DNA from: Escherichia phage 4E8
Sequence record: OQ689734.1
Length of the DNA stretch: 64,000 nucleotides
Reading direction: 5' to 3' (one strand)
The notes beneath the pieces were generated by a model. It saw nothing but the letters and a program-made list of their open reading frames with translations. It did no database searches and was not told where the DNA came from. Below are positions 31,732 to 61,715 of this stretch, piece by piece (position 1 is the first letter of the stretch; every line of letters begins with the position of its first letter). The position numbers were made by a program, and so were the translations under genes.

Positions 31732-32261
31732 TATTCAGTTCCTTCTGTTTTTAAGTAATCACGATCCATATAGTAGGTTTTAACGGAATCTTGAGATGGT
31801 GTTGGGTCAAAAACTACCAACATACTCCCTTTTGTGTTTCCGTTAACAGGGACTCTAGTATCAGCTCTTACAAAACTAATACGTCCTCCTGTTATAAACA
31901 TTATACTATTAGCATTTATCCTACACTTATCAAACCATCGAACTGAAGTATCCGCTGGAATAAGTAGAACTGTTCCAACATTGTGGTCCTGTTGATTTCT
32001 AATTGCCAAGTCAACCCACGGTCCAATATCTGAATATGGTGGATTACACCAAACATAACTACCTCTAAACACTTCAAAGTCATAAGTCAGAGCATTATCT
32101 TCCTCTGATATGAAAGTGCTAACTAGGTGATTGTCTTGACTTGCTGCAATATCACATACGAAGTGTTTATTCTTATTAACATAATTAAACAACCACTGAG
32201 GTGTTTGCCACAAATCTCTTATATCTACCGGAGTGTGTGAGCTTCTATAATCTGTTACCAT
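31731..32261 (-). CDS. DNA N6-adenine methyltransferase (phage Dam-like)
   Basis: 176 aa; WCNPPYS catalytic motif (NPPY) typical of N6-adenine methyltransferases. Confidence 0.65.
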   Translation of the reverse strand: MVTDYRSSHTPVDIRDLWQTPQWLFNYVNKNKHFVCDIAASQDNHLVSTFISEEDNALTYDFEVFRGSYVWCNPPYSDIGPWVDLAIRNQQDHNVGTVLLIPADTSVRWFDKCRINANSIMFITGGRISFVRADTRVPVNGNTKGSMLVVFDPTPSQDSVKTYYMDRDYLKTEGTE

Positions 32262-33100
32262 GTTTTATCCAACCAAGTCCATTCGAATAAGTCACCTTCA
32301 GCTTGTCCAACGAATAGCAATCGAGCATTTTCTAACATCTTAGCTTCTGCTTCTTCCTCGAACCTCTTATAGTATTCCATTCGTATAATATGATAAAGAG
32401 TCCACTTATCGAATACCTTCTCAATAAGTTTGATAGCAGCTTTGCTACCAATACCCTTACGACGCATAACTAAATTACCGCCCCACATCATTTCAACTTT
32501 CTCACCACACCCGGGGATGTTATCTGTACTATCCCCAATCAACATCTGATAGAAGAAGTTCTGCCATGCTACTTCCTCTGATACATAATGAGGGGGTACT
32601 TCTTTCTGTCGTTCACCACAAGCCCAGCGATAATGCCATCCGGGAGTGATTAACAAATCCTTATCACGAGTACAGATGATTGTGTTCTTTTCTATACGCT
32701 GTCGTTCAGCGAGTGCATCATCTGCTTCTCTGCCAAACACTTCAACATACTGGTAATGTTCTTTGATATAATCACTAACGTTCTGCCAGTGATGAGGTCT
32801 TTCTCCCGGTGGTCGATTAGCTTTATAACCTTGCTGCTTAGCAATATCAAACCGAAAATTACCACCTTCGCTGAAATAGAAGACAGTTTTCTCACAACCT
32901 GACCTTGCAATGATTACGTCAATTTTGTGTTGAAGGCGTTCGATCAAGAATCCATAATCAACTGGAACACGACCTGTGTCTAGGAAAGGATGCTCTTGTG
33001 TAAGAGCACCAACCTCATACCGTAGAACATCTGCATCCACAATTGCTACTTCAGGATAGATTACATCAGACATAGAGATCTCTCCGTGTCCTTTCAACAA
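32255..33100 (-). CDS. 5'-3' exonuclease / flap endonuclease
   Basis: 281 aa; acidic metal-binding clusters (DADVLRYEVG, EADD) and a helix-hairpin-helix-like GDSTDNIPGCGEKV...GIGSKAA segment. Confidence 0.7.
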   Translation of the reverse strand: MLKGHGEISMSDVIYPEVAIVDADVLRYEVGALTQEHPFLDTGRVPVDYGFLIERLQHKIDVIIARSGCEKTVFYFSEGGNFRFDIAKQQGYKANRPPGERPHHWQNVSDYIKEHYQYVEVFGREADDALAERQRIEKNTIICTRDKDLLITPGWHYRWACGERQKEVPPHYVSEEVAWQNFFYQMLIGDSTDNIPGCGEKVEMMWGGNLVMRRKGIGSKAAIKLIEKVFDKWTLYHIIRMEYYKRFEEEAEAKMLENARLLFVGQAEGDLFEWTWLDKTW

Positions 33101-33662
33101 TCCAATTTAAATAATCTACTGCATCTTCTACGGTAGAGTCGTTTACTAAATAGTATGTGTTTCTCTGACTGCCTTCGATGTAAGAACGAGAGTCTCCTTC
33201 AAATGAGCAGTCATCACGAAGAATCTGAACTACCTGAACATGGAAATGCTCTTCCAGTTCTGAAACCTCTGCTTTGAATCCACCGTCAGAGAAGACGATA
33301 ACATCTTTCTGCCCTAACAACTGTTGCTTGATACTACTAACAGCCAACTTACCCATACAGGTATCACCAAACATTGGCTTCAAGTAGCTCTCACTAGTTG
33401 CAATCATCAAATCTCGAACTGACTTACCGCCCCACTCAGGACGGCTTCGTTCTTTCCATTCTCGGTCGTTGTACAGCTCCATGAACCCATAAAGAGGGAG
33501 ACCTAATGCAGCAGCAGCCACTCGATACATAGGCTCCTTAAAAGCCTTTACATGCGGTCTAAACTCATCATTACCAGTGGTCTTCTCTAACCAAGCATTA
33601 GCGATTGTATCTTTACCACAACCCGGAGGTCCATTCAGAATTACTACTAATGGTTTACTCAT
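33066..33662 (-). CDS. P-loop nucleotide kinase (dNMP kinase-like)
   Basis: 198 aa; Walker A VILNGPPGCGKDT at the N-terminus. Confidence 0.55.
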   Translation of the reverse strand: MSKPLVVILNGPPGCGKDTIANAWLEKTTGNDEFRPHVKAFKEPMYRVAAAALGLPLYGFMELYNDREWKERSRPEWGGKSVRDLMIATSESYLKPMFGDTCMGKLAVSSIKQQLLGQKDVIVFSDGGFKAEVSELEEHFHVQVVQILRDDCSFEGDSRSYIEGSQRNTYYLVNDSTVEDAVDYLNWIVERTRRDLYV

Positions 33663-34312
33663 TATTGAATCATCCCTTGAAGATCTTCTTTATCAAAGTG
33701 CTTCTCTACTACAGCTTCATACAGATCACGATTCTCTGCATAACGGCGATAGAAGGTTCCGTGTGAAATTCCCAGCTCCTGCTGGATGTGATCATGTGGG
33801 ATACCGAGAAAGAGCATTGAGAACATGCTTGCCATCTTACGGTTTTCCATAATATCACTCAAGTCTTGGAAGAAGAAAAAGATTCTAGATTCCAAGAACG
33901 GGTCTCCAGTAGAATCATGCTTATCCATCGCAATCTCTAAAGGACTTTCCCATGAATTCATCTCAGGAGGTCTAAACATATCAGCCTCTGGAATAGAGTA
34001 GATACGTCGGTCTCCAACTGTCTGACGATTAGAACGAATCGACCAGATGATATTCTTGACACGATAAGTCATGTGCTCAATATCTTTTTCATCAGTGAGC
34101 AGAAGTTCTTCTTGCTTTGCAAATACAAAACGCCAAGCGTTCAGTAACACTTCCTGAGCAACATCCTCTGCCTCGTGATAATCTTTAATGTCATACATAA
34201 AATACTTATGCACAACTTTCCAGTTCTCTCGATAAAATTCATCGAAGGTTGGATAATACTTAATAGGAATGCCATGAATACGATAGCGTGTAGGTGTTGT
34301 CTTTTTCTTCAT
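33662..34312 (-). CDS. putative phage sigma factor (ECF-like sigma-70 family)
   Basis: 216 aa; region-2-like [19 protein letters not shown] and C-terminal HTH-like [16 protein letters not shown]; no phage RNAP gene in the window. Confidence 0.5.
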
Positions 34313-39064: not shown

Positions 39065-40912
39065 TTAGTGAGTGTGATTCCAGTTTAACCCAATCTTACA
39101 GTCAGATGCCAGAGGGCATTCCATTTTGAGATACTCACCTGCTTTACGAACACACTCTTCAGTGAGGGTACGAAGTTTGTTAACATCGTCACGATGTACA
39201 GTGAACTGGCCTTCATCATGCATGTCAATAACCTTCGCACAACGAACACCATCACGCTCAATCCATTTATTGAGGAATAGCATTGCATACTTCATAACAA
39301 TCGCCCCAGCGCTCTGTAAGAGTGTATTTAAGGCTTTATGGACCATAACCTTTCCAGTTGCATCTCTTCTCATTGTAATACGACGTCCATCCACACCGTA
39401 GATATATCCACTTTGTGCTTTCTCTGTCATACGTTCAATAAGGATTGCAATACAAGGATTCTCTGCTAAGAATCTTGCTCTCATGATAGCCCCTTCGTCA
39501 GAGCCTCCACCAACGATAGAACCGAGCTTAGCATCACCTGCACCATAGTTAAAGGCATATATAAACGTCTTAGCGTTATCACGAGTAGGAAGACCAGCAA
39601 GTTTTTGGTTATGTGAGTGAATGTCTCCTTCTAAAAGAATATCTCTGTACATAACAGCAGAAGCTAGACCGCGTTCAGCTTCTCGTTTCTTAGCTGGGTT
39701 GTTTTCTCGCTCTGCTTCAGCGAGCATCTCACGACATTCTTTAATAAGGTAGTGAGCTAGCATCCTCAGCTCAAGACCAGAGCCATCGTAACCTAAGAAG
39801 ATTTCACGACCAGCAGGTACATAGAACTTATAGGCACCTACAGGTTTGTCTTTCTTGCCCGGTTTTCCCACTTCGTAGATAATGTTAGTACCTTTTCGTA
39901 CGTAACACCCATCAGGGATATGGTTGGTAATGATGAAAGGATGGTTATGACTGTCGTCTGAGGAATAGTCAGATTGAAAAAGACTGCGGCACTCGTGACC
40001 AAACAAACCGCGAGAAGGAATATTAACAACAATGCGATGTTTAAAACGAAATGTCGGAGTAGCGCAGCTATTAGCTTCGGCGGACAACTTACCATCTTTA
40101 CGTTCCTTGTCGATAAGCCCGCTAATCAAACCTAGCCTGTGAGCCGCTACAACACGTCTCTTAAGCAAGCTTCCTACACCCCCTAGCTCACCCCCAAGCC
40201 CCTCTTCAAGAGTCTCCTCAAGGTTTGTAGGGGCTGTGGGCCACTTGTTTGATGTAGCCAAAGCTTTTTTGATTTCATCAAAGGTTACAGGTTTCTTCCT
40301 ATTCGGATTAAGACCTAAACCACTGACGTAGGCTTTCATGTAGTTGACAGTGTGATAACGGAAATGTTTATCCAAAAATCTTCGGATATCAGCATCTATC
40401 ATCTCCGCTATCTGTTTCTCTTTAGCATTACCTCGAATCCAAGCAGAATACCATGCAGAGTATGTACCATACTTCTTCATAGCTTTACGAATTTCAAAAG
40501 TATTCCAAGGTTTCTTAGAATAATTCCACTCTGGAGGTATAAAACCTTCATCCATCAAGGCTTCTTTAATACGTGCATCTTTTGATGGGTCAAAATCTAC
40601 ATACTCAACGCAAGTAAACGCCCCACCGATATCTTCTCTTTTAAGACCAACCCTATCGCAATAGAGCTGAGGCCACTTCTGTAAAGCACCTGATTTCTTA
40701 AAAGGCTTAGCATAAGTTGAACCGTCCACCCGCATTTTGGGGAGGAGAGGAATCAGTTCTTTATCAATATTGACAATAATCTCTTTGAGAAGGTGAACAA
40801 ACCACCGAGCGTTTCTTCTGTTGAAGTTGACTCCATGCTTCGCCTGTTTTGAGATTATATCAGCGACTGTCATCTCCGTTATGAAAGGTAACTTATCAGG
40901 GTTATCCATCAC
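39065..40912 (-). CDS. DNA polymerase, family A, polymerase domain only
   Basis: 615 aa; motif A FLGYDGSGLELR, motif B RDNAKTFIYAFNYGAGDAKLG (RxxxKxxxFxxxYG), motif C MHDEGQF; no 3'-5' exonuclease motifs in this ORF. Confidence 0.85.
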   Translation of the reverse strand: MMDNPDKLPFITEMTVADIISKQAKHGVNFNRRNARWFVHLLKEIIVNIDKELIPLLPKMRVDGSTYAKPFKKSGALQKWPQLYCDRVGLKREDIGGAFTCVEYVDFDPSKDARIKEALMDEGFIPPEWNYSKKPWNTFEIRKAMKKYGTYSAWYSAWIRGNAKEKQIAEMIDADIRRFLDKHFRYHTVNYMKAYVSGLGLNPNRKKPVTFDEIKKALATSNKWPTAPTNLEETLEEGLGGELGGVGSLLKRRVVAAHRLGLISGLIDKERKDGKLSAEANSCATPTFRFKHRIVVNIPSRGLFGHECRSLFQSDYSSDDSHNHPFIITNHIPDGCYVRKGTNIIYEVGKPGKKDKPVGAYKFYVPAGREIFLGYDGSGLELRMLAHYLIKECREMLAEAERENNPAKKREAERGLASAVMYRDILLEGDIHSHNQKLAGLPTRDNAKTFIYAFNYGAGDAKLGSIVGGGSDEGAIMRARFLAENPCIAILIERMTEKAQSGYIYGVDGRRITMRRDATGKVMVHKALNTLLQSAGAIVMKYAMLFLNKWIERDGVRCAKVIDMHDEGQFTVHRDDVNKLRTLTEECVRKAGEYLKMECPLASDCKIGLNWNHTH

Positions 40913-40925
40913 CCACTCCTTATAA

Positions 40926-41279
40926 TTATTGGTATATTAAATCTGTGAATGCTTGGTTGTCTTCAACAATATCTAAAGCTTCATATGAATCAGCCAATTC
41001 ATCCACATAAAAGACTGCTGGAACATCTTCTGCTCGCTGTCTACGAGCTTCTCTCCGTTCGTTGCTGTTTCTCTGAACCTGTGCAAGTTTCATACCCCAC
41101 ACCTGCTCATATAACTCTGGATACTTGTCACTAACCACTACATAGTTTCGAGCTGGTTGGTTTCTATTAATCTTCGCTGTCAACTCAATAAACTGGCGAA
41201 ACTCTTGAATAGAGAGGTTATCATGAATATTATCCCACTTGAGAACGCAGTGACGTTCTAGGCGTTGAGGTACTGGCAT
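40926..41279 (-). CDS. hypothetical protein
   Basis: 117 aa ORF. Confidence 0.4.
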   Translation of the reverse strand: MPVPQRLERHCVLKWDNIHDNLSIQEFRQFIELTAKINRNQPARNYVVVSDKYPELYEQVWGMKLAQVQRNSNERREARRQRAEDVPAVFYVDELADSYEALDIVEDNQAFTDLIYQ

Positions 41280-41282
41280 AAC

Positions 41283-41552
41283 TTACTCCAATGTAGGGAA
41301 TGGTTTTAGGTTGTTCATGGCTGTACGAACATCAGCACAGATTTCAGGGTCACGATAAGAGAGGAATTTACCATCCTTACCACGAATCATTACATTAGTC
41401 CGTGCTGTTTTATTAGGCAATAAAGAAATCCCTCCAATAAGATGGTTGGTAGGGTGTTGTCCTTGATTAACTTTGTAATCATGAGTCTGAGCGTCACCGT
41501 TAAAGAGATGATCACGAATTTGGATTAAACTAATCTTCATATTATGCACCAA
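41283..41552 (-). CDS. small hypothetical protein (member of a tandem paralog pair)
   Basis: 89 aa; C-terminal TNVMIRGKDGKFLSYRD...NLKPFP matches the neighbour. Confidence 0.4.
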   Translation of the reverse strand: MVHNMKISLIQIRDHLFNGDAQTHDYKVNQGQHPTNHLIGGISLLPNKTARTNVMIRGKDGKFLSYRDPEICADVRTAMNNLKPFPTLE

Positions 41553-41793
41553 AGTTAGGGAAAGGTTTCAGGTTTTCAATAGACTTAGCAATACGCTTAG
41601 GAACACTGCTATCACGGAAGGAGATAAACTTTCCATCAGCACCACGAAGAGCTACGTTAGTGCGAGCTGATGTTTGGTTAAACTGAATCATCTCAACAGC
41701 ACCTGTAACGTTTTCTACAGGGAAGGTGTAGCTTTCGGTTGCATTCTGAGAGGGGAGAAAATCAGTTACAGTGATATAAGTTACTTTAGACAT
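41542..41793 (-). CDS. small hypothetical protein (member of a tandem paralog pair)
   Basis: 83 aa; C-terminal TNVALRGADGKFISFRD...NLKPFP. Confidence 0.4.
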   Translation of the reverse strand: MSKVTYITVTDFLPSQNATESYTFPVENVTGAVEMIQFNQTSARTNVALRGADGKFISFRDSSVPKRIAKSIENLKPFPNFGA

Positions 41794-41811
41794 ATTTATT
41801 ACCTTAGGTTA

Positions 41812-41846
41812 TATAAAAGAAAAGGCCACCCGAAATGGGTAGCCTT
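41812..41846 (-). terminator. minus-strand terminator (ggctaccc auuuc gggtggcc + U-run)
   Basis: 8-bp stem with one wobble followed by a T-rich run in transcript sense; directly after the HNH gene. Confidence 0.5.
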
Positions 41847-41849
41847 ATA

Positions 41850-42344
41850 TTAACTTGAGCTTAAAGCGTGTCTGATAGCTGTATGGCTTACACCAAACAT
41901 TCTACCTAAAGCTCTTGTTCCAAACTGAGCAGAACCTTTGACATAAAGATTTTTAACTCTTTTAACATCCTCTGTATTAAGTTTCATTCTAGGGTTTATG
42001 TTCCTGTGATGGCCTACATTAAGACCTGTATCAAAAGAATGTTGAACATTCTCAGAAGCATCTGCCCACTCTAGATTCTCAATACGATTATCACTTTTTA
42101 CACCATTCTTATGATTTATCTGAGGTTTGTTTTCAGGGTTAGGTATGAAAAAGGTTGCTATCAACCTATGAGCTTTCCATGACCTCCCTTCAAAATAAAC
42201 CCTAATATAACCTTTAGTGTCTAAGTGGCCAGCCTCTTTACCCGGATGGCTCTTATTCCACTTAAGACCTTTTGAAGACGACTCTGTGTAAAACAGACGA
42301 CCAGAATCTCTATCATAAGAGAGGTAGTCGGATATAGGAATCAC
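41850..42344 (-). CDS. HNH endonuclease (homing-endonuclease-like) with C-terminal HTH
   Basis: 164 aa; HRLIATFF...INHKNGVKSDNRIENLEW...ASEN matches the HNH_3 core (H...N...N), C-terminal helix-turn-helix-like segment. Confidence 0.6.
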   Translation of the reverse strand: MIPISDYLSYDRDSGRLFYTESSSKGLKWNKSHPGKEAGHLDTKGYIRVYFEGRSWKAHRLIATFFIPNPENKPQINHKNGVKSDNRIENLEWADASENVQHSFDTGLNVGHHRNINPRMKLNTEDVKRVKNLYVKGSAQFGTRALGRMFGVSHTAIRHALSSS

Positions 42345-42655
42345 TGACTCAGCGCCCCCTTCCTTCCACCATTTGATTTTCCAGCACGATCTCCACTTTT
42401 GCCGCCGTTCGAGCGATTTCGAGAGACTGATTCAACACGTAAGTTACTTGACGCATTAGAACCTCCCGACTTGATTGATCGTTTGTGTCCAACATCTTTA
42501 CCTCGGACAGCAGCTTTTCCATCGCGCTTTTCAACGATGCGACGTGCACGGTGGCGCTGAGCATCTCCGCTCTTGCTACCAACACCTGTCTCACCCCTTG
42601 CGATTGCAGTTCTTCGTTCTTGTGCATAATCACGTTTCGCCTTATCGGTCATCAT
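42341..42655 (-). CDS. small basic protein with a possible HNH-like motif (frame choice uncertain)
   Basis: 104 aa; VGHKRSIKSGGSNASSNL...RNRSNGGK resembles H..GG..N..N spacing; an alternative 94-aa ORF (42349..42633) overlaps in another frame. Confidence 0.3.
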   Translation of the reverse strand: MMTDKAKRDYAQERRTAIARGETGVGSKSGDAQRHRARRIVEKRDGKAAVRGKDVGHKRSIKSGGSNASSNLRVESVSRNRSNGGKSGDRAGKSNGGRKGALSQ

Positions 42656-42699
42656 AACTCCTTAATATATCAGTGTACACTAAGGAGTATACATTATAT

Positions 42700-43437
42700 T
42701 TATGATTTTTCAGATTCCATTGCTTTAACAATAGCTTTACAGAAACCTGAACGAACAATATCATCCGATTCGCCATCTACTAGAGCGGCAAATTCAAATA
42801 ACTGGTGACGGTAGATGAAATCAGTAGCCCAATCAAGACCGCTCTCACCACGCATGTCGTGCTGGTTAGTGTCCCCCATGCAGAACATCTGAGAGGTTTC
42901 ACCAAGACGTGTCATGATTGAATATGCTTCATCAGGAGTAGTGTTCTGGAACTCATCAACAATCACGATAGCATCGTTGAACGAGCGACCACGTAGATAT
43001 TCCAGAGGTACGAACTCAATATTACCATTACCTACTTGACATTCGTAGAAACCTTTACCGTAGCGCTGAGTAATAACATCAACGATTGGCATTAGGTATG
43101 GTTCAAACTTCTCACGAAGCCCACCGGGAAGTAATCCAAGACTATTACCCATACCAACAGCAGGTCGGCTTAGGATAATCTTCTCAATCTTCCCACTCTT
43201 CAGAGCATCAATCACTGTAGAAGTGATTACGAAGGTCTTACCACAACCAGCAGGAGCATCTGTGAATACAACCTGTTTGGTTTTAATTGCATCAAGCAGC
43301 TCACTCTGGAATTGGTTCTGAGGTACTACCGGCTTAGCAAGAACTACTTCTTCAAATTCCCGCTTTCCTTTCTTGGTGACGAGAGCTTCACGACGTAATT
43401 CTCTCCGTGATGCTTTCCGAGATTCTCTACGACTCAT
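42700..43437 (-). CDS. phoH: PhoH-like ATPase
   Basis: 245 aa; Walker A DAPAGCGKTFVITS and overall PhoH-like arrangement. Confidence 0.75.
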   Translation of the reverse strand: MSRRESRKASRRELRREALVTKKGKREFEEVVLAKPVVPQNQFQSELLDAIKTKQVVFTDAPAGCGKTFVITSTVIDALKSGKIEKIILSRPAVGMGNSLGLLPGGLREKFEPYLMPIVDVITQRYGKGFYECQVGNGNIEFVPLEYLRGRSFNDAIVIVDEFQNTTPDEAYSIMTRLGETSQMFCMGDTNQHDMRGESGLDWATDFIYRHQLFEFAALVDGESDDIVRSGFCKAIVKAMESEKS

Positions 43438-43615
43438 TTCCTACCTCCGTGTTCTTCATATAAGAAGCTACAGGATTTACACTCTGAGCAATGGATACCT
43501 ATAACCTTAATTTCGACAAACTTCTTATTCTTCCCTTTAGTCGGGGAGCCTTTGGCAAGCTCCCGTATTACTTTCGAGTCCAAATGGAGAAGAGTTGATT
43601 CACATTTAAAACATT

Positions 43616-43936
43616 TCAGATTGATTTGTCCTTATGTAAACGGTATACTTCAGTAGCCATACAAGCTATACGCTCGTCATGTGGGAGATGCATACCAGTA
43701 GAGCCGTTCCATCCTTCGAACTCTGAATCAAAGAATCCAATAGGCTCGGGATACATCTCTTGCAAGGTGGTTAAGTCATCAGCCACTTGTTGCCACTTAT
43801 CGTCAGACCAGATTGGGTCATCCAACCAATAATACAAATAGGAGTGGATAAGCATCTGTGTTCTATGTCGTTTAATCACTTCAGCAGGACTAATCTCGTT
43901 TCCGTTACCAGTCCTAAATGTATTATCATTGATCAT
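43616..43936 (-). CDS. small protein resembling the N-terminal domain Ia of NAD-dependent DNA ligase
   Basis: 106 aa; IHSYLYYWLDDPIWSDDKWQQVADDLTTLQEMYPE parallels the LigA Ia signature (YxYYxxDxPxxSDxxYDxLxxxLxxLExxxPE). Confidence 0.4.
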   Translation of the reverse strand: MINDNTFRTGNGNEISPAEVIKRHRTQMLIHSYLYYWLDDPIWSDDKWQQVADDLTTLQEMYPEPIGFFDSEFEGWNGSTGMHLPHDERIACMATEVYRLHKDKSI

Positions 43937-44146
43937 TTATTTAACCTCAACAATCCCAAGTTTCCAAACATATCCGGGAGCAGAGTCCTGTACGGCTCCA
44001 TATTGAAGAACAGTATCACAAGCATCACTATCTATACCATCAAGCATCAGCTGACCACGAGTAGGACGTTCTTTGTAATAGGTTACTTTGACTTCTGTGT
44101 CATGAGTCCGTTCACTAAAGCATAGACTTAATTTGTAGATTCTCAT
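43937..44146 (-). CDS. hypothetical small protein
   Basis: 69 aa ORF. Confidence 0.35.
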   Translation of the reverse strand: MRIYKLSLCFSERTHDTEVKVTYYKERPTRGQLMLDGIDSDACDTVLQYGAVQDSAPGYVWKLGIVEVK

Positions 44147-44622
44147 TCTAAAACCCTTTCCTCTAAATCATAAAAGATTTGATTTGTCCCATTGTTTTCA
44201 ACAAGCACTGTCCCGTTATCTAACAGGGTAGTAACTTGTGAATAAGGAATGTTCTTTAACATCAGAGCATTGATGGTTGGCTTATTTTTGAAGTAAGCGA
44301 CCGGCTCAACGTAGAAGGAAATCCCACGACTTCCTTTGATTGGTGTGCTTGAAGACAGAACCCAAATCGTTTCTGGCTTGTCTACTTCCTTTTCAACACC
44401 AACCTCAACAAGCGAGTCAGCAGCGAAACCTACAGGACGACTAGAAGAGCCAAGCGCCCGAATAAATCCCGGTAATTTCGACATATTAGACCAACTACCA
44501 GTGTTTTCATTAAACACAGGTCTTACATCACCATATGCCCAAACCAGATTATCACAGTCACGGGCTATGTATTTGGTCCAATCAGGAACATCATACTCTC
44601 TTCCTTCAAAAATAGCTTTCAT
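44143..44622 (-). CDS. hypothetical protein
   Basis: 159 aa ORF. Confidence 0.4.
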   Translation of the reverse strand: MKAIFEGREYDVPDWTKYIARDCDNLVWAYGDVRPVFNENTGSWSNMSKLPGFIRALGSSSRPVGFAADSLVEVGVEKEVDKPETIWVLSSSTPIKGSRGISFYVEPVAYFKNKPTINALMLKNIPYSQVTTLLDNGTVLVENNGTNQIFYDLEERVLE

Positions 44623-44931
44623 TTAGATAACCTTGTGCTTGTAGATGCTAGGGTTGAAGTAATGCAACCAGTTTATGTATTGTTTCTGTTCAAGGTAGTG
44701 TCTGCAATCATGACAAAAAGCATGACCCAAACCTGTTTCCTCGTTCAGCTTGAAGTTGATAAGAAGCTTCTGCTTTTGACAGAAGCTACATGCTTTAGTG
44801 GGCTTCACGTAGTGCATCCCATGAGATTGGGAAAAGTTTACGAAGCTCTTCATCAACAGTTGATGCGAACACTCGTACTTCATACTGAGCATGGTCGGAC
44901 AGTCGCTGACGACATAACTCTGACCAGCCAT
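44623..44931 (-). CDS. hypothetical Cys-rich (zinc-binding-like) protein
   Basis: 102 aa; CSFCQK...CHDCRH; 5' end overlaps the thyX 3' end in another frame. Confidence 0.35.
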   Translation of the reverse strand: MAGQSYVVSDCPTMLSMKYECSHQLLMKSFVNFSQSHGMHYVKPTKACSFCQKQKLLINFKLNEETGLGHAFCHDCRHYLEQKQYINWLHYFNPSIYKHKVI

Positions 44932-45445
44932 ATAAAGAACCTGTCCACACCCACTCAGTGATCATACCTTGAGGTAGAACGAATCGGGCTTGCTCTGGAG
45001 CAATAAACTTAATCAACTCATCATATGACTCAAGAGCTGTTTCATATGCCCGATTAATCAGAACTAGTGCAGAGTTTTGCGCTCCTGTGGTGAGGAGATT
45101 CCCCGCACCTGCATGGAGGTCCGAAGGTCTTTCAAAAATCTCTTTAGGGATGAAGAGTTCAACTGCTCCATCTTTATACCGCCGGGACATTTCGTTCCAC
45201 GAGAATCCAACTTGATGCTTGCCCAGCTGTCTCGCAATTGCGATTGGCGCTTTGCATCGGAAGCTAATTGTCGGATGGCGGAATGGTGTGACATGCTTTT
45301 CTCTGGCAAGGAACTTGATAAGGCGTTCATCTCGTTCATTTAACTCTCCTTCACGAGTAACCCCAAAGGAAACTCGAGCTGCATTAACAACAGATTTATC
45401 AGAACCCATTGCTTCAATTAGTGTTGCTTGTAATTGTTCGTTCAT
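44795..45445 (-). CDS. thyX: flavin-dependent thymidylate synthase (ThyX) homolog with divergent signature motif
   Basis: 216 aa; AARVSFGV...HVTPFRHPTISFRCKAPIAIARQL...FSWNEMSRRY and SDHAQYEV are ThyX-like, but the canonical RHR of the RHRx7S motif reads KHQ. Confidence 0.7.
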   Translation of the reverse strand: MNEQLQATLIEAMGSDKSVVNAARVSFGVTREGELNERDERLIKFLAREKHVTPFRHPTISFRCKAPIAIARQLGKHQVGFSWNEMSRRYKDGAVELFIPKEIFERPSDLHAGAGNLLTTGAQNSALVLINRAYETALESYDELIKFIAPEQARFVLPQGMITEWVWTGSLYGWSELCRQRLSDHAQYEVRVFASTVDEELRKLFPISWDALREAH

Positions 45446-45459
45446 CCTTGAATTCTTCC

Positions 45460-45675
45460 TTAGTAATGAATCTTTTTATAAACCATGTTGCTTCCACTTT
45501 CTGTTTCAATCCCTTTCTGGATTGTAATCTTAGAAGCACCAGTGTTAACAATTTTTAAAGCTCGCTTAAAGCGGCGAGCCTCTTTCCGTGTGGAGTATGT
45601 TGAGAAGCTAGGGATTGTGCTATCAAAATTAAACCACTTAACTACCCAAAAAGTAATCCAAGGTTTCTTTTCCAT
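45460..45675 (-). CDS. small protein, member of a 4-copy paralog family
   Basis: 71 aa; shares W..V...TRKEAR..K..LK and C-terminal ...HY with 47542..48163 genes. Confidence 0.4.
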   Translation of the reverse strand: MEKKPWITFWVVKWFNFDSTIPSFSTYSTRKEARRFKRALKIVNTGASKITIQKGIETESGSNMVYKKIHY

Positions 45676-45676
45676 A

Positions 45677-45949
45677 TTAAATACCTTTCAGAGCCGTGTC
45701 TAAAAATGCACGGAGATTAGATTCAGTTTGCATACCTGATAAACTATAATGAGCACCACTATTCTTATCAGGTACGACAAAGGCTGGGATACTGCGAACA
45801 CCATATTCAATGGCTCGCTCTCGACCATCACCTTCAGAGATATTTACTTCTTCAACTTCTACACTGTAGTCAGCCACAACCTTCTTAAACACAGGAGCCA
45901 TAGCTGCACATGGAGCACAGGAATTACTATAAAACTTAATTACTTTACT
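45677..45949 (-). CDS. thioredoxin/glutaredoxin-like protein (CxxC); start set to MSKVIKFY
   Basis: FYSNSCAPCAAMAPVFKKV resembles the thioredoxin WCGPC active-site region. Confidence 0.55.
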   Translation of the reverse strand, partial: SKVIKFYSNSCAPCAAMAPVFKKVVADYSVEVEEVNISEGDGRERAIEYGVRSIPAFVVPDKNSGAHYSLSGMQTESNLRAFLDTALKGI

Positions 45950-46142
45950 CATTCTATTCCTTGTTAATAAACAGATTGATATGACGCTGGGTAGCAGGAA
46001 CAACAATAAAAGATTTATACTGACCTTTTGCTAAGTCATGAGCAATCTTCTTTGTCTGACCAAGACCCATCACACAGCCACTAACGATAATGGCATGTGC
46101 TTGTAATTCTTCAGGTAGGTTTAGTTTCACTCTTTGGGTTCC

Positions 46143-46328
46143 TTATAGCATACAAAGAATAATAACAAGAGGTAGTGTTATAGCAAAATGTACCAGAACA
46201 ACACTACCAAGCTTGATAGCTTTAACATCCTCTTCTGCTGGGTTTTCTTTAATTGCTAAATTTCGAGCTTTATATATAACAGTACCAACTATTAATGACC
46301 ACACGGCCCACACAATCAGTGAAATCAT
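46143..46328 (-). CDS. small two-TM membrane protein (paralog 1)
   Basis: 61 aa; two hydrophobic segments; similar to the upstream gene (AIVWSVWAILVGGIVY / LIVWAVWSLIVGTVIY, KENP). Confidence 0.4.
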   Translation of the reverse strand: MISLIVWAVWSLIVGTVIYKARNLAIKENPAEEDVKAIKLGSVVLVHFAITLPLVIILCML

Positions 46329-46337
46329 ATCAAACCC

Positions 46338-46559
46338 TTATGCAGTCAACAGGTGGAGAAGGAAAGGAATGACAACAGAGAAAACTACCAGAGCAATGCT
46401 ACCATGTTTAATAGGTTTAGCATCATTCGGATTCTCTTTAAGCATCTGTTTCTGAGCCAGATAAACGATACCACCAACAAGAATTGCCCACACAGACCAT
46501 ACGATTGCTGAAAACATATTCATATCCTTATAAAGAAGTTCGCCCCACCTCTTAAACAA
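46338..46559 (-). CDS. small two-TM membrane protein (paralog 2)
   Basis: 73 aa; see paralog 1. Confidence 0.4.
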   Translation of the reverse strand: MFKRWGELLYKDMNMFSAIVWSVWAILVGGIVYLAQKQMLKENPNDAKPIKHGSIALVVFSVVIPFLLHLLTA

Positions 46560-46580
46560 AGAGACAGGGCGGAGGTTTGA

Positions 46581-47156
46581 TTAGTAAGACACATCACCAC
46601 TGGAGTGGGACATGTTGCTCTTGACGAAGTAACAGAACTTGCCAAGACCTTCATTGATTTCTTGAAGCATACTCTGATCAACTGGATAGGTGCACAAGTC
46701 TGAATCAAACTCGTCCATCTTCTCAATGATACACATAAGAGTCATGCACATGTCGGAAAGCATGCCGTCCATGTCGAGATCAGCGTTACCTTCTCGGAAC
46801 CAAGCATGACCTAAATAATTACTAGCAGTAGCATCCACTTTAACACAATGAAAGCGCATACGCTCTGCTATTCGGTCGCCTGCCTCACGAGCATAATCTT
46901 CTAGTTCATCGAACATACCATGAACACCTTGGAAACCAGCTCCAGAGACGTTCCAGTGGTAGTTCTTTGCTTTGATGTGTAGAAGTTCAAGATTAGCTTG
47001 CACACCACACAAGATGTGTTCTAAGCTGTTACCGCTAATCAGTTTATTCATTCCCTCAAGACGAGAGATAGAAGAGTCAGCAGTAGAGAATGGGTTGCTA
47101 GAACCCACTCGTGTTAGTTCTGGTAAGTCGAAGACATTATTATGCATTAGGTGCAT
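46581..47156 (-). CDS. Dps/ferritin-like protein
   Basis: 191 aa; YHWNVSGAGFQGVHGMFDELEDYAREAGDRIAERM closely parallels the Dps ferroxidase-site region (HWN..G..F...H......D..AER). Confidence 0.65.
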   Translation of the reverse strand: MHLMHNNVFDLPELTRVGSSNPFSTADSSISRLEGMNKLISGNSLEHILCGVQANLELLHIKAKNYHWNVSGAGFQGVHGMFDELEDYAREAGDRIAERMRFHCVKVDATASNYLGHAWFREGNADLDMDGMLSDMCMTLMCIIEKMDEFDSDLCTYPVDQSMLQEINEGLGKFCYFVKSNMSHSSGDVSY

Positions 47157-47469
47157 CCCCTTCTAAGTTAGTTGAATTAGCTACATTACGAGCAATGTTA
47201 TCCATGACCTGTTGTGTGATAACAATGCAATTCTGAGGGTCTACTGATTTAGAACGCCCCATTTCAGGGTCATAGACTTTGACTCGCTTGGCTGTTGAGC
47301 CAGTAACTTGCAACACTTTGAGAAGATAACCTTGATTTCCAATAGACCATGCAACAACATCACGATTCTTGATATAACGACCAAGCATATCACGATGATA
47401 GAACTGCTGCATAACTTTAGCTTTGCTAATCTCTTCGGCTGGCGGAGCCACTTTACTCAAATCTAACAT
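47140..47469 (-). CDS. hypothetical protein
   Basis: 109 aa ORF. Confidence 0.4.
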   Translation of the reverse strand: MLDLSKVAPPAEEISKAKVMQQFYHRDMLGRYIKNRDVVAWSIGNQGYLLKVLQVTGSTAKRVKVYDPEMGRSKSVDPQNCIVITQQVMDNIARNVANSTNLEGDAPNA

Positions 47470-47541
47470 TTCACTCTCTCCTGTTCAATACAATATTCTT
47501 ATACTGTATATACATTTGAGAGTGATCATATCTACTACCAA

Positions 47542-47751
47542 TCAGTAGTAAATTACTTTAGACATAAAAGAACCAGTGTTAGGGTCTTCATACCAGCGAT
47601 GTATGTCAGCGCTTTTTACTATTGTGCCCAGAATCTTCAACTGTTTCTTAGCAATACGAGCCTCTTTGCGAGTGTCAAACAATTTGATGCTATCTTTTCT
47701 CGTGTGTTGATCAAGATCCCAAACAACACGAATCGCCCACATCTTTTTCAT
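47542..47751 (-). CDS. small protein, paralog family member
   Basis: 69 aa; W.IRVVW...TRKEARIAKKQLK...YY. Confidence 0.4.
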   Translation of the reverse strand: MKKMWAIRVVWDLDQHTRKDSIKLFDTRKEARIAKKQLKILGTIVKSADIHRWYEDPNTGSFMSKVIYY

Positions 47752-47966
47752 TAGTAGTGCACCTTTCCGCTGATATAAATACGGCCTGAGGTATACTCAT
47801 AGCCCTTGAGAATCTTAACAGAGGTAGTGGAGCCATCGTTTAGTGCACAGATTGACTTCTTAAGATTGCGTGCATCTTCTCGTGTCTTCTGGTAGGTCAT
47901 GGTCACACCCCCACTCTTCCACTCTGTTTTAACTAACCAAACTATTTTCATAAGACCTGCTCTCAT
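47751..47966 (-). CDS. small protein, paralog family member
   Basis: 71 aa; IVWLVK...TREDARNLKK...HY; 1-nt stop/start overlap with neighbours. Confidence 0.4.
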   Translation of the reverse strand: MRAGLMKIVWLVKTEWKSGGVTMTYQKTREDARNLKKSICALNDGSTTSVKILKGYEYTSGRIYISGKVHY

Positions 47967-48163
47967 TAGTAGTACACCTTGCTTCCAGCCATGAACGCCC
48001 CTGTCGAGCTTATCATGGCTTTGCTGATAGTAACTTTCTTACACCGTAAACATACCTTCCAATTCTTTTTACAGATTCGAGCTTCTTGTCGAGTGTTACA
48101 AAAAATAGCCGAAGATATTTCTTGAGTGTTGTTGTCATAAACACGAACACACCACTTTTTCAT
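47966..48163 (-). CDS. small protein, paralog family member
   Basis: 65 aa; W.VRVY...TRQEARICKK...YY. Confidence 0.4.
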   Translation of the reverse strand: MKKWCVRVYDNNTQEISSAIFCNTRQEARICKKNWKVCLRCKKVTISKAMISSTGAFMAGSKVYY

Positions 48164-48366
48164 TTTACTAAACCCTTCATGTAATCGTAGAGGTTGTTAG
48201 AAGCTTTGCCCCATTCGACATGCTTCTTATCCATGTAATCCTTAAAGATTTCTCTATTATTTTCGACACACGTATCATACTGCTGACACGCTCTGCCAAA
48301 TGTCATAGCTGTTAACTGAACCTCAGTAGTTAAACCTTTAAGTTCTTGAAACTCTTCTTCAGTCAT
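48160..48366 (-). CDS. hypothetical small protein
   Basis: 68 aa ORF. Confidence 0.35.
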   Translation of the reverse strand: MTEEEFQELKGLTTEVQLTAMTFGRACQQYDTCVENNREIFKDYMDKKHVEWGKASNNLYDYMKGLVK

Positions 48367-48900
48367 TTAGACACCCTTAGAAGCAACTACACCCTCGCTA
48401 CCATTATAGCGACCCTTAACTGCATAGGAATGTTCACCGGCATGTGAATGCTCAAACATTACCATCTGACCGACACGCATACCAGCACGAACACGTAAGC
48501 TGTGGTGCTTGGTTACGTTGTGGAATTCGAACGTCAGCTTGCTATTATTAAACCCAGCGTCTGCCCACCCGGCGTGAAGGTGGTTCAAGCCACAACGAGC
48601 CATTGAGGAGCGGAGTACAAACAGACTTGAGAGGTTATCTGGAAGGTTAAATTCTTCCATTGAGTGAGCTAAGAAGAACTGTCCCGGAGTGATGACAATA
48701 CCATCTTCAGGGATTTTCACCTCTTTCCACTTGAGGTTTTCTTTAGCATCAATATCAACAATGCCGTCAGCCTGTTCTTCAACAAGGATAGTATCACCAA
48801 TACGGATATCCACACTAGCAGCGTTAACATATTTATGCTCCGCATCTAAAAAGCCATTATCAATAACGCTGTGTAATTCTTGAGAACCTAAAAGACTCAT
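48367..48900 (-). CDS. dCTP deaminase family (Dcd/dUTPase-fold) protein
   Basis: 177 aa; AASVDIRIG, LRSSMARCGL, HAGWADAG and GRYNGSEGVVASKG parallel conserved Dcd segments. Confidence 0.65.
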   Translation of the reverse strand: MSLLGSQELHSVIDNGFLDAEHKYVNAASVDIRIGDTILVEEQADGIVDIDAKENLKWKEVKIPEDGIVITPGQFFLAHSMEEFNLPDNLSSLFVLRSSMARCGLNHLHAGWADAGFNNSKLTFEFHNVTKHHSLRVRAGMRVGQMVMFEHSHAGEHSYAVKGRYNGSEGVVASKGV

Positions 48901-50315
48901 GAGTTTCTGTTTCCTTGTACAGATGATGCCAAATTGTTAATCATGTTACGAGCTGTTTCACGAGACAGTGTAACACCTGCTAAGTTACTATCAAGTTCAC
49001 CAACCATTTCACGAGCAGCAGATCGTAGTTCTGCACCAAGTGCAGTATTAGAGTGAGCCAAACCATTACGACGACTATAAGGGCGAGGGGCTTCGTTAGC
49101 GTCATTAGCTAAAGATGCAAAGCCAGTACGAGCAGCTTCACGAGCCGCTATCGCTGCTACTTGATCTTCCATATGGGTTGGCACATCACCAACTTCTACA
49201 CGTTCTATATCACTAGCACGTAGACCCTGAACAACAGAGCTTACTGTTTCCCATGAACGACGAGAACGCTGTAAATCTCCCATTGACGGAGAAGAAGCAG
49301 GACGAATAGTTACCCCACCTGTGTCATGAGTTACATGCCATGTATGGTTGTGGGTGTCCGTCCCAGAAGATCGTGCACTACCAAAACTGCCAGTGAAAGT
49401 GTCACGTCTGTTAGTTCCTGGAGTCCAAGGTTGTGTGATTGCTTCAGCACCGATAGTAACTAACCCACTAGACCATTCTGTCTGTAGGTTAACTTCTTCA
49501 TCCAGATAAATATGACCTACTTCCGGAGGAATATTTAATGCAACCTCCATCATCTTCAAGGTATAATGACGACGTTGATTCTGATACAAGTTTACACCAG
49601 CCATAGGTCCAACTAGATCACTGATAAGATGAACTTCTGGCTCACCAAAAGCACCCATCGCAAGGTGCATGTATTCAGTAGAACTGCTATAAACTGCAAC
49701 AGTTGCTTCAGGCCACTTTTTGTGAACATATTTCATTTCACGACTTGATACTACAGGAATGTCACGAGTATACGACATTGCAAACAAACCTTCATCTGAC
49801 ACATACATGTCATCAAGAGTCATGAAACCCTGACAGATCATAGGGAAGCGACCACATAGAGTGTTCATATCCAGAGGAAGGTTAATCATCATCTGAATCT
49901 TCACTTCATCAATCTCAATTTCCAGAATCTCTTGGAAAATGAAAAGTGCATCAGCGTAAGTTGCTCCGGTGATAGGCTGAGCTAAGCGAGATGTAACTTG
50001 AAGCCCCTTACTCTCTGTCCAAGACAAGAAGTTGTCAAGGAACAGTGCAGCATTACTTACGTTAGCAGGGCTGTTTTCCTGACGAGTGTTCCAACGTAAT
50101 CCTCCTTGAACTAGGAAGATATCAACATCATTCGGAGTTCGGTTTTGGAAGAACGTATCACGAATAGCACCACCTGCAATAACAGGGTAGATACCATCAG
50201 GAACTACGTTGTCTCTGATCAGATTGCGAATCAGATCAAGCCCTACGCTGAGGGCTTCTCCTTCTTGAAGGTTTAATTCAGACAATGGAATCTTAATCAT
50301 TTCTACATTTTCCAA
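48897..50315 (-). CDS. nucleotidyltransferase (Pol-beta superfamily) domain protein with long C-terminal extension
   Basis: 472 aa; [23 protein letters not shown] fits hG[GS]x(9-13)DxD of minimal nucleotidyltransferases (CCA-adding/poly(A) polymerase head); C-terminal ~250 aa unassigned. Confidence 0.45.
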
Positions 50316-50851
50316 TTTAGAGATGGGGGATTCTTATAATCAAATCCAGCCATTTGACAAAGACACATGTAAACTTTAACTGTCAAGTTAACGTCTTGCT
50401 CACAATAGGTGAACATGTCTTCAGTGAATGCGTCCCATGCCTCCTCCTGTTCTCCATAATCTCCTTTCAGCTCCCCAAGAAACTCGCCCCATTGTCTGAG
50501 GCCGTGACCACGAGGGCCATGTCTAGGGTCGCCTTTGGGGTATTCTGGACTATCACCAATACGGTCAGGCTTGAGATATCTACTCAGGCACAAAGTATCG
50601 AAGACGTTAAAGCGAAAAGGTATCACATGAGAATAAAACTTAAACAAAGCAGGAAGGTCAAAATCAATAATATTGTGACCTATTACTACATCAGCCTCTT
50701 TCAGTTTGTGTAGTGCTTCTTCAATTTGGTGAGGGCGATACCCCCACCGCTCTCCAGATAATACATCAAATATCCAGATACACCAGACATTCTGAATACC
50801 ATCATAGAGATTATCCCCCTCAATATCAAACGCATACAGTTTCTTTACCAC
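50303..50851 (-). CDS. DnaQ-like 3'-5' exonuclease (stand-alone)
   Basis: 182 aa; Exo [12 protein letters not shown], Exo II-like [14 protein letters not shown]; overlaps the primase-helicase stop. Confidence 0.65.
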
Positions 50852-52635
50852 GGACGTGCCTCCCCTTCTTGTGCAAGTAAGGAAGCTGCATCCTCTCCAT
50901 TGGTAACGGTAAAAGGATGCTCTTCATCAACTTCATGATCTTCTCGTTCTACAAGACGACCTGTTTCATTGATGTATTTGGTATAGCAAACCCCTGTCTG
51001 TCCATAGTTACGCTCTTTGAGCAGTCGTATGATTGACAAGTTTTTACCTAACCCATCCGCTTGTTTGTTACGTTCAAAACCAATAATACACTGACACCAG
51101 CGCATCAATGAACGTGAACCAGTAAACTGTACTTCTTTAACCTGACCACCTTCTTCGTGAGGTGCACCACCTGCCGGAGCGTTCAAGTGAGATAATACAA
51201 AAGCAGTGAAGTCTAATTCCTTACACATACCAGCAAGCTCTGAAGCAATCTTGCTGATTTCTGTGTTTACCTCAGATGGGGTTAAGTGAGATACCAATGC
51301 AGTGATGTTATCAAGAATGATAAATTTACACTGATTCTCAACTACCCAAAAGCGAATACACTGCTTAATGTCTTCCCACTCGTTCTGCCCAAAATTGTCA
51401 TACAAGAAAAACTTATCAGCGTATCGAAGTGCTTCATCTCGTAGCTGGCTTTCTTCGTACTCAACATCTGGTCGGTGGAATGGAATAGATGCAGATTTAC
51501 CTGCAATGTTCTTAACAGACATGCCTACCTTCTCTTCCAAGAAGAAGCCACCACCATTAAAACCATGCTCAAGGCAAAGCCATGCTACTAGTTCGTGTGC
51601 GATTAAGGTTTTACCTGAACCAACACCACCGCCGATTGCAACCATCTCTCCCCAACGAATACCAAAGGTCATGTCGTTAAGAGTTTTCCACGGATAAGGA
51701 ATACCCCATTCCGCTTTCTTCAGAGCATCTTCGAGGCAATCAAAAACTGTAACAGCGCCGGCAGGAGATTCCCGCTTAGCTGAATATTTCAGATTGTTGA
51801 AAAGCTCTTGACCTCTCCCTGCAAGTAACATGTCGTTTGCATCTTTGATTTCCTTTTCTTGTCCGTTATAAGTGAACGTACCTTTTGGAATCCTTGCAAA
51901 CTTAACATGCGGGTACAGAGAACGACCCTTAGTTAAAGCAATCTCACCTGCATCATCATTGTCCATGCAGAGTACAATCTCCTCGAAACCATTAATAAAA
52001 TCACGGTTTCTTGATAATACAGAAGAGATTGAACCTGCACCGAACGGAAGAGAGACGCAAGCAGGTTTGATGTTAGTTGCGTTTGTAAACGCGGTAAGTA
52101 CGTGGAACCCAGACATACAAGAGAGAGGATCTTCAAAGATGAAGAGTTTCTTGTTGTATACGTCACCACGTTGTGCTTGAGCCATACCAAACAAGTCGGC
52201 TTCTTTCACATTACCTACATAATAGAACTTCTTGCTGTCTAGAAGTTTTACTTCATATCCAACAATGTTCCCATCACGTTCACGAGGGAAGAAGTAGCTG
52301 TCAGGAGTTTGACCATCTGTTTGGCTTAAACCGATACGGCATCCATAACGTTCAGATACAGCTTTAGGAATTAAGCGACGAGTCAACTCTCCCTGAGGAA
52401 GCTCTAAGCAATCGTCTAAGACTTCTCGGAGTTCTTCAGGGGACAGCTCTTTCTTTTCATTAGGAGTGGGCGTCGTTCCTTTCTCGAAGATTTCATACGC
52501 ACCACATCTGTTACATGAACCCCACTCCTCACCGGACTCTTCATTTCGGAAGAGAATCATGTGATTGCGGGTCTTATCACGACCATGAGAGATACACTCT
52601 TTACAGCCTGTGTCTCCCAAAATGATCTTTGACAT
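50845..52635 (-). CDS. primase-helicase (T7 gp4-like architecture)
   Basis: 596 aa; N-terminal Cys4 zinc-binding element (CKEC...CNRC), central TOPRIM-like region, C-terminal helicase with Walker [10 protein letters not shown]. Confidence 0.8.
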
Positions 52636-52670: not shown

Positions 52671-52877
52671 TTAGTAAAACGATCGTATTTCTTCCCACAC
52701 ATCATCTTGCAAGTTTCTAAAACCCTGCAAGGTTTGCTTTGTTCTGTGAATAAATTCTTCAGAGTGCTTGTCGGGTGTGAGCATACTGACAAACTTTTCA
52801 TAGCGATTAATCTTCCACCGCATCTTCAAGTAGTCAGATTCCAGCTTTCTTAACTTCTGCCTGTCAGTTACTGTCAT
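52671..52877 (-). CDS. hypothetical small protein
   Basis: internal Met of ORF 52671..52973 chosen to limit overlap with the upstream gene. Confidence 0.3.
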   Translation of the reverse strand: MTVTDRQKLRKLESDYLKMRWKINRYEKFVSMLTPDKHSEEFIHRTKQTLQGFRNLQDDVWEEIRSFY

Positions 52878-53295
52878 CCTTCTCACCTGCCAGATATGCT
52901 GTCCAGTCACCAGATTCAACCAGAACATCTTGTTCTTCGTCGATGTGATAAATCCACGCTTCCACAGTTTCACCGCTGTCCAATAATACTGGAATCAGTG
53001 TACGCTTGTAAAAGGTGTATGGGTTATCATTACCACGATGACCTTCCAGACCGTCATACGGACCTTCCAGACCAGCTTGGGTTGTTTCAAAGACTTCTAC
53101 ACGAACAGGCTTACCATTGCTGTCATGCTCCAAAGATACACTTGGGAAGTATGCTGTGCAATACTGATACAGGTTACAGTTGTTTACTGTCCACCCTTCA
53201 CCAATAGACACACCACCTGCACGAGCATTGATAGCGTGGTTGTGTTGACCTTTACGAAGAGAACCATACGTTGCAACTAATACTTTATCAGACAT
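52864..53295 (-). CDS. gamma-glutamyl cyclotransferase-like (GGCT/AIG2 fold) protein
   Basis: 143 aa; N-terminal VATYGSLRKG (YGSL motif) and VRVEVFETT...LEGPYDGLEG resembling the GGCT catalytic-Glu region. Confidence 0.6.
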   Translation of the reverse strand: MSDKVLVATYGSLRKGQHNHAINARAGGVSIGEGWTVNNCNLYQYCTAYFPSVSLEHDSNGKPVRVEVFETTQAGLEGPYDGLEGHRGNDNPYTFYKRTLIPVLLDSGETVEAWIYHIDEEQDVLVESGDWTAYLAGEKDDSN

Positions 53296-55664: not shown

Positions 55665-55666
55665 TT

Positions 55667-55897
55667 TTAGATACCTTTTAGTTTAAGGATTTCGTTACGA
55701 CAGGATTGAATTTTAGCTTCGATTGCCCAATACTCAGCGAACATTTCGTCTTCTTGGGCATCGCTTGGAGAGTCGATTAAGTTAAAAGCAAACGGATACA
55801 GCTTTCGCTGCTCCGTTACCAGTTGTTGAAGTCGGAGTTGTTGATACTCCAGCATTGTCAGGTGAGGCTTAGCTCCCTTGCTTGACATGAGGCTCAA
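55667..55897 (-). CDS. hypothetical small protein
   Basis: 76 aa ORF. Confidence 0.3.
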   Translation of the reverse strand: MSLMSSKGAKPHLTMLEYQQLRLQQLVTEQRKLYPFAFNLIDSPSDAQEDEMFAEYWAIEAKIQSCRNEILKLKGI

Positions 55898-56102: not shown

Positions 56103-56113
56103 AACTATACCTC

Positions 56114-58147: not shown

Positions 58148-58224
58148 TTTCTAATCCACCTGAAGGGTAAACCCTTTCATCTAATTAACCTTTAAATGCG
58201 CCCTGTATAAGAGCGCCCGTTGTG

Positions 58225-59948: not shown

Positions 59949-59957
59949 AATATCACC

Positions 59958-61707: not shown

Positions 61708-61715
61708 ATTCGCCT

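Follow-up and report, generated by a model that had tools for sequence, protein, structure and literature searches.

Are the DNA polymerase and the proofreading exonuclease of Escherichia phage 4E8 the two halves of one T7 gp5-type enzyme, and would they still act together as one replicase? The question is raised by two minus-strand open reading frames (ORFs), 39065..40912 and 50303..50851, in a stretch of 64,000 nucleotides (nt) of DNA from this phage (sequence record OQ689734.1), hereafter called the window, which belongs to a phiEco32-like (Kuravirus group, Gordonclarkvirinae) C3 podophage of E. coli with a nucleotide identity of ~97% to the phages IME267, MLP3 and SU7. A first-pass annotation had described the former as a family A polymerase of 615 amino acids (aa) with motifs A, B and C but without Exo motifs, and the latter as a separate 182-aa DnaQ-like exonuclease. 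Both ORFs were found at these positions. As judged from sequence comparison and structure prediction, the two halves of a T7 gp5-type polymerase are encoded by separate genes in this phage. The split is real, but it is already known for this phage group, and the present analysis makes one modest addition to it, namely that the two clades with a split polymerase have differing breakpoints.

The polymerase ORF encodes a DNA polymerase subunit of family A (T7-type), which has a thumb, a palm and fingers but no exonuclease. Its start is most likely the ATG at 40909, one codon inside the GTG at 40912, because the Shine-Dalgarno sequence AAGGAG stands 6 nt upstream of this ATG (AAGGAG-tgggtg-ATG). 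The ORF itself was thus correctly recognized, but the gene is 39065..40909 (minus strand) and its product most likely has 614 and not 615 aa, in agreement with the 614-aa polymerase annotated in phage Bas87. Pfam DNA_pol_A was matched by residues 363-612 (E 4.5e-24, 85.5 bits against a cut-off of 34.3), and no exonuclease family was matched by this ORF in Pfam at E<=0.1. Among PDB sequences searched with phmmer the best match was T7 gp5 (E 6.4e-33), collinear from approximately gp5 residue 296 to 702. Motif A (GYDGSGLELR, with D375 and E380), motif B (RDNAKTFIYAFNYG, with R443, K447 and Y451) and motif C (HDE, H564-D565-E566) were all identified. D375, E380, R443, K447, Y451 and H564 are invariant in 56 polymerase sequences, with D565 and E566 nearly invariant. 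The top 27 Foldseek matches in PDB of the AlphaFold2 (AF2) model (pLDDT 89.9) were all T7 gp5. At the N-terminus of the model two long helices and hairpins make up the thumb, and the model has no RNase-H-like sheet. The absence of Exo motifs was therefore borne out by Pfam, hhalign and AF2 alike, with an N-terminus that starts at about gp5 residue 205 and has no exonuclease fold.

The second ORF (50303..50851, minus strand) encodes a stand-alone DEDDy 3'-5' exonuclease subunit of 182 aa that corresponds to approximately residues 2-198 of T7 gp5. Searched with phmmer against PDB sequences, it matched the N-terminus of T7 gp5 only (residues 8-135 on gp5 4-142), and for the AF2 model (pLDDT 92.3), too, each of the first 27 Foldseek matches in PDB was T7 gp5. 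Two PHROGs families, phrog_38876 (E 7.9e-67) and phrog_403 (E 9.1e-37), matched the protein, and both are named 'DNA polymerase exonuclease subunit'. The PHROGs, PDB, Foldseek and hhalign results thus agree on a T7 gp5-type proofreading domain and speak against an unrelated protein with an RNase-H fold, which had been considered at first.

All three exonuclease motifs were found: in addition to Exo I (D9/E11, DxE) and Exo II (N60/D65, Nx2-3[FY]D), which had been recognized before, the protein has Exo III (Y149-x3-D153, YCEQD). As Exo III carries a tyrosine, the exonuclease is of the DEDDy type that is found in the exonuclease domains of family A/B polymerases, and not of the DEDDh type of DnaQ/epsilon. 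Its best Pfam family was DNA_pol_A_exo1 (PF01612), and neither a PF00929 (RNase_T) match at E<=0.1 nor an Exo III with the Hx4D histidine was found in the protein. The description as DnaQ-like is therefore right for the superfamily but not for the type. D9, E11, N60, D65, Y149 and D153 are invariant in 35 aligned exonuclease sequences, down to 35% identity, as are H116 and much of the C-terminal GFDxxNPP tail.

Both genes are under strong purifying selection. In comparison to Bas87, the exonuclease gene had 42 synonymous differences and one non-synonymous difference, with a ratio of non-synonymous to synonymous substitution rates (dN/dS) of 0.004, and for the polymerase gene dN/dS was 0.034. 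The same split arrangement was found in >20 independently sequenced phage genomes. We therefore rejected the explanation that the split arose as an artefact of assembly or sequencing, or that the exonuclease is the decaying remnant of a pseudogene: the number of independent genomes, the excess of synonymous differences and the catalytic residues that are kept down to 35% identity all contradict it, no point in support of it was found among our results, and we regard its probability as negligible. The synonymous rates themselves differed nearly four-fold between the two genes in the comparison with Bas87 (dS 0.53 for the exonuclease and 0.14 for the polymerase), and this contrast indicates mosaic recombination among the genomes of the Kuravirus group.

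Next we compared the two proteins with T7 gp5 by profile alignment with hhalign. Residues 6-180 of the exonuclease were placed on gp5 residues 2-198 (probability 99.5%, E 3.5e-22) and residues 3-614 of the polymerase on gp5 residues 205-704 (probability 100%, E 2.7e-52). Based on these alignments, the two ORFs together cover gp5 from end to end without loss or duplication of any part, and the break lies in the linker between the exonuclease and polymerase domains. In line with this, the NPP motif at the C-terminus of the exonuclease aligns with the gp5 linker FPPEIDF. Both proteins also matched a single PHROGs polymerase profile, phrog_17, the exonuclease at positions 670-826 and the polymerase at positions 837-1233. 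The tiling and the separate ORFs support the earlier proposal that polymerase and proofreader are distinct polypeptides.

We consider it likely that the two genes go back to an ancient fission of a gp5-type gene and that the two halves re-associate as one proofreading replicase. In this scenario one ancestral T7 gp5-type family A replicase would have been cut in the linker between exonuclease and polymerase, around gp5 residues 199-204, and the exonuclease half would have stayed just downstream of the primase-helicase gene, the position of gene 5 in T7. Variable nucleotide-metabolism genes and small genes would then have accumulated between the halves, so that the polymerase, still on the same strand, came to lie 9.4 kb further downstream. 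The unsplit gene 5 of T7 follows gene 4 at a distance of ~1.1 kb, with a few small genes in between; it would thus be the exonuclease half that kept the ancestral position and the polymerase half that was displaced. The products would be two separate polypeptides of ~21 and ~69 kDa, which most likely re-associate non-covalently via the old interdomain interface into a gp5-like enzyme. In such an enzyme the 614-aa subunit would synthesise DNA and the 182-aa DEDDy subunit would remove misincorporated 3' nucleotides, and the replicase would work together with the gp4-like primase-helicase and possibly with a thioredoxin encoded by the phage. Physical association of the two subunits and proofreading across them are inferred, with support from the conserved NPP tail and from a published AF2 complex model of the adjacent split halves of the polymerase of an S-SBP1-like cyanopodovirus, which superposes on an unsplit relative (PMC10201439).

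The separation is also seen in the homologues. In a search of 5.8 billion proteins all 36 exonuclease homologues were stand-alone proteins, 35 of them with a length of 163-208 aa and one a partial sequence of 105 aa. Most of the best 120 polymerase homologues had 490-620 aa and no annotated exonuclease domain, and among these 120 was the protein annotated as 'DNA polymerase part II' in LUZ24-like Pseudomonas phages (~42% identity). Searching with tblastn and the exonuclease ORF as query, 1,973 phage records were matched, ranging from the N-termini of fused T7-type gp5 proteins (32% identity) to stand-alone genes annotated as 'part I' or 'DnaQ-like exonuclease'. Gene order is conserved as well. 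In the window, Bas87, Pseudomonas phage NV1, the metagenomic contig L006 and a 100.9-kb contig (L007/L008; Logan SRR23468768_1375) the exonuclease gene lies directly downstream of the primase-helicase gene, and the polymerase gene without exonuclease lies further downstream on the same strand. This order of primase-helicase, exonuclease, gap and polymerase is thus kept in distant relatives, and the gap varies from 2.0 kb with seven small genes in NV1 to 3.2 kb in L006, 9.4 kb in the window and 10.8 kb, including nrdD, in the 100.9-kb contig. The gap is filled by a cassette of nucleotide-metabolism genes that is variable.

The primase-helicase gene upstream of the exonuclease (50845..52635, minus strand) is T7 gp4-like (phrog_239, E 5.9e-175; Pfam DnaB_C). 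The GTG start of the exonuclease overlaps its stop codon by 7 nt (GTGGTAA), as had been noted at first for the overlap as such, and GGGGAGG is found upstream. The C-terminus of the primase-helicase is acidic and its last residue is W, an aromatic residue. It recalls the tail of T7 gp4, which is acidic, Phe-terminated and binds gp5.

The same overlap could be taken as a sign that the two ORFs are rejoined into one chain, through a split intein, trans-splicing or a frameshift fusion with the primase-helicase. Polymerases with split inteins do exist, as in the cyanobacterial DnaE. However, the ORFs hold only gp5-equivalent residues and leave no room for intein halves, and no Hint or intein match was found in the Pfam scan of the ORFs, and we rejected the intein and trans-splicing variants. 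A helicase-exonuclease frameshift fusion was rejected as well: no slippery heptamer is present in the overlap, and the exonuclease of L006 starts past the helicase stop with no overlap. Furthermore, the proteomics of phage SU10 lists the polymerase at 69.1 kDa. Altogether rejoining of the halves is highly improbable.

Several observations weigh against a two-subunit replicase. The PF01612 score of the exonuclease was 22.6 bits, just under the gathering score of 23.6, although a precomputed PF01612 match is present for many of its close homologues. The small stand-alone DEDDy nucleases NrnC and diDNase were among the weaker Foldseek matches of the exonuclease (E ~1e-5 to 1e-4). In addition, between the exonuclease and the polymerase there are 25 genes together with one or more terminator-like hairpins, so that equal or simultaneous expression of the two is not guaranteed. 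It could thus be argued that the 182-aa protein, although derived from the gp5 exonuclease domain, is now a free nuclease that is independent of the polymerase, and that the phage polymerase works without proofreading. Degradation of host DNA or primers, recombination and processing of short oligonucleotides are possible roles of such a nuclease. The protein is indeed a separate polypeptide encoded far from the polymerase, with terminator-like hairpins in between, and NrnC and diDNase are structurally matched free nucleases of similar size. However, T7 gp5 was matched ~5 orders of magnitude better than these free nucleases, and the gp5 linker motif is kept at the C-terminus of the exonuclease. 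Wherever we examined it, the exonuclease gene shared a contig with the exonuclease-less polymerase gene, including L006 and Logan SRR23468768_1375, and it stays in the replication module beside the primase-helicase. It has also been reported that PolAs structurally need the exonuclease domain for stability and that all phage PolAs seem to keep 3'-5' exonuclease activity (PMC10201439). A free nuclease is for these reasons unlikely.

The split into two genes could also have a function of its own. The 7-nt overlap with the helicase gene, to which the exonuclease may be translationally coupled, and the terminator-like hairpins between exonuclease and polymerase would allow the ratio of exonuclease to polymerase to be set independently, or the exonuclease might be delivered through the helicase. 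We regard this as a rather remote prospect. If true, it would mean that replication fidelity is tunable during infection, or that one proofreader is shared by the leading- and lagging-strand polymerases.

The closest known systems are found within the phage's own group. The separation of exonuclease and polymerase has been stated before for phiEco32, Kuravirus and LUZ24-like phages (PMC3517423, 2012; PMC9965538, 2023), and the latter paper extends it to the phages 7-11, Privateer, Vp_R1 and BUCT695. The former cites the 2008 phiEco32 paper for the split. In RefSeq the genes of phiEco32 and ECBP2 are labeled "DNA polymerase exonuclease subunit", the name that is also used by the PHROGs families. 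The phiEco32/Kuravirus group has the same genes in the same order, with a nucleotide identity of 97-99.5% for IME267, MLP3 and SU7. For the polymerase ORF nucleotide identity was 96-97.5% to IME267, MLP3, vB_EcoP-101114UKE3, SU7 and other Escherichia phages, and for the exonuclease ORF it was up to 99.5% to IME267, MLP3, SU7 and other Escherichia phages; the exonuclease gene of phiEco32 has 79.7% amino-acid identity to that of the window. Nothing of substance differs from this group, except that the window has a free-standing HNH endonuclease gene (41850..42344) and an uninterrupted polymerase gene.

Interruption of the polymerase gene near motif C was observed in SU7 (L005, 1501-3952), ECBP2, PAS59 and Bas89. 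The insert has ~600 nt with an HNH homing endonuclease and leaves ORFs of 570 and 51 aa, and beside the HNH gene there was a sub-threshold Rfam match to a group I intron (26.3 bits against a gathering score of 50 bits, E 1.9e-4). Fragments of 437-457 aa (~73% of the query) among the polymerase homologues point to a possible further insertion site close to motif B.

In LUZ24-like and related Pseudomonas phages (PaP3, tf, NV1) the genes are annotated as 'DNA polymerase part I / part II', the polymerase is ~42% identical and the break is at the same place in the linker. NV1 has the same order of primase-helicase, overlapping exonuclease, small genes, polymerase and 5'-3' exonuclease, with amidoligase, GATase and ATP-grasp genes upstream, but a gap of only ~2 kb with seven small genes in comparison to 9.4 kb and 25 genes in the window.

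A split polymerase has also been described in an S-SBP1-like cyanopodovirus, where the exonuclease and polymerase of a T7-like PolA are separate genes (Czernecki et al., NAR 2023, PMC10201439). There the genes are adjacent and overlapping and result from a recent 1-nt frameshift (PMC10201439), whereas in the window they are neither adjacent nor overlapping and have a gap of 9,390 nt between them. In an alignment of five sequences the break of the window clade was at approximately gp5 residues 199-204, with the NPP motif on the exonuclease side, and that of the WH11-B/S-SBP1-like sequences at approximately residue 188, with FPP on the polymerase side. Because these breakpoints differ, the linker between exonuclease and polymerase has apparently been cut at least twice independently, as far as this alignment can be read. 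The Kuravirus/LUZ24 clade represents an older fission, after which the halves moved to a distance of 2-11 kb from each other while purifying selection on both has stayed strong. The system would be of some value as a family A replicase that occurs naturally in two subunits.

T7 gp5 is the best sequence and structure match of both halves, but it is a single 704-aa chain, and the polymerase of the window has extra segments and an apparently shorter thumb insertion. The segments without a counterpart in T7 gp5 are residues ~147-209, 322-368 and 391-415. The first is helical and follows the thumb, the second is beta-rich and lies just before motif A, and the third is a helix that follows motif A; within the clade the second of these segments is conserved in part. 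Residues ~56-105 align with approximately gp5 residues 258-338, the thioredoxin-binding element, and are roughly half as long according to hhalign and phmmer. In S-SBP1 this element is likewise about half the T7 length (PMC10201439), and hhalign suggests such a shortened element in the polymerase of the window. T7 uses the thioredoxin of its host, whereas the window has a thioredoxin gene of its own (45677..46006, minus strand; Pfam Thioredoxin, E 1.3e-12), whose product is by analogy a candidate processivity partner of the polymerase. A pairing of polymerase and thioredoxin has been proposed for the related phage Privateer (PMC7881722). The principle of separate polymerase and proofreader subunits is also that of E. 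coli Pol III alpha and epsilon (DnaQ) and of DP1/DP2 of family D, but the Pol III and family D polymerases are unrelated to family A, and epsilon is DEDDh in contrast to the DEDDy exonuclease described here.

The distance between the two genes is 9,390 nt (40913..50302, minus strand), close to the ~10 kb first given, but the block contains 25 minus-strand genes and not ~20. These are 24 ORFs and one further gene with a shorter start, which overlaps thyA at its longest start, and the ORFs tile 96% of the block. According to PHROGs and Pfam its contents include HNH, PhoH, Nlig-Ia, thymidylate synthase (ThyA), thioredoxin, ferritin/Dps-like DNA-binding, dCTP deaminase and nucleotidyltransferase genes. 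The terminator-like hairpin at 41822..41846 (minus strand) has a 10-bp stem followed by TTCTTTTATA; it is a pattern match from a consensus scan only, and the annotation of phage SU7 has a terminator at the equivalent position. The scan for sigma-70 promoters gave 26 sites, fewer than in shuffled sequence (32±5.8), and no promoters were inferred. The free-standing HNH gene at 41850..42344 (minus strand) lies ~1 kb upstream of the polymerase gene and is absent from this place in Bas87. We rejected the idea that it is the same element as the HNH that interrupts the SU7 polymerase, as the two share 29% identity over 69 aa in the HNH core only.

The stop codon of the exonuclease is directly followed by the ATG of the nucleotidyltransferase gene (48897-50300, minus strand; ~467 aa; phrog_12715, E 5e-151). 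The nucleotidyltransferase had no Pfam match. A GG..RD…DVD motif of the pol-beta type is present at its N-terminus, and the C-terminal half, rich in Ser, Gly, Thr and Arg, is probably disordered. A stand-alone Nlig-Ia protein, which has the NAD+-binding Ia domain of LigA but lacks the other parts of the ligase, is encoded at 43616-43936 (minus strand; Pfam E 8e-34). It is labeled 'DNA ligase' in relatives, and its copy in L006 (11151-11450) lies immediately upstream of the polymerase gene. The block also holds paralogues on the minus strand: two tandem copies of phrog_6814 (41283-41552 and 41542-41793), two tandem copies of phrog_9296 (46143-46328 and 46338-46559) and two copies of phrog_4939 (45460-45675 and 47542-47751). 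These three pairs encode small proteins.

In the remainder of the window the structural genes are on the plus strand up to ~30.8 kb, and the replication and metabolism genes are on the minus strand and run leftward. A 5'-3' exonuclease of the T7 gp6/FEN-like type has its own gene at 32255..33100 (minus strand; phrog_107, E 1e-60), with weak Pfam 5_3_exonuc_N and 5_3_exonuc matches below the gathering cut-off. It is a third nuclease/polymerase activity on a separate gene; in T7 the 5'-3' exonuclease is likewise separate, as gene 6. Gp27 of phage YF01 is a homologue of this protein (PMC9965538). A sigma factor, as is characteristic of this phage group, has its gene at 33662..34312, and another free-standing HNH endonuclease is located at 31149-31721 (minus strand). 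Upstream of the replication genes there is a gene cluster at 54429-62933 on the minus strand; in Bas87 the corresponding genes carry the annotations amidoligase, glutamine amidotransferase, COOH-NH2 ligase and RimK-like ribosomal protein S6 glutaminyl transferase. In the window itself a gamma-glutamyl cyclotransferase gene (52864-53295) and a RimK-like ORF (54429-55664) were confirmed. A similar cluster precedes the primase-helicase gene in NV1, L006 and L007.

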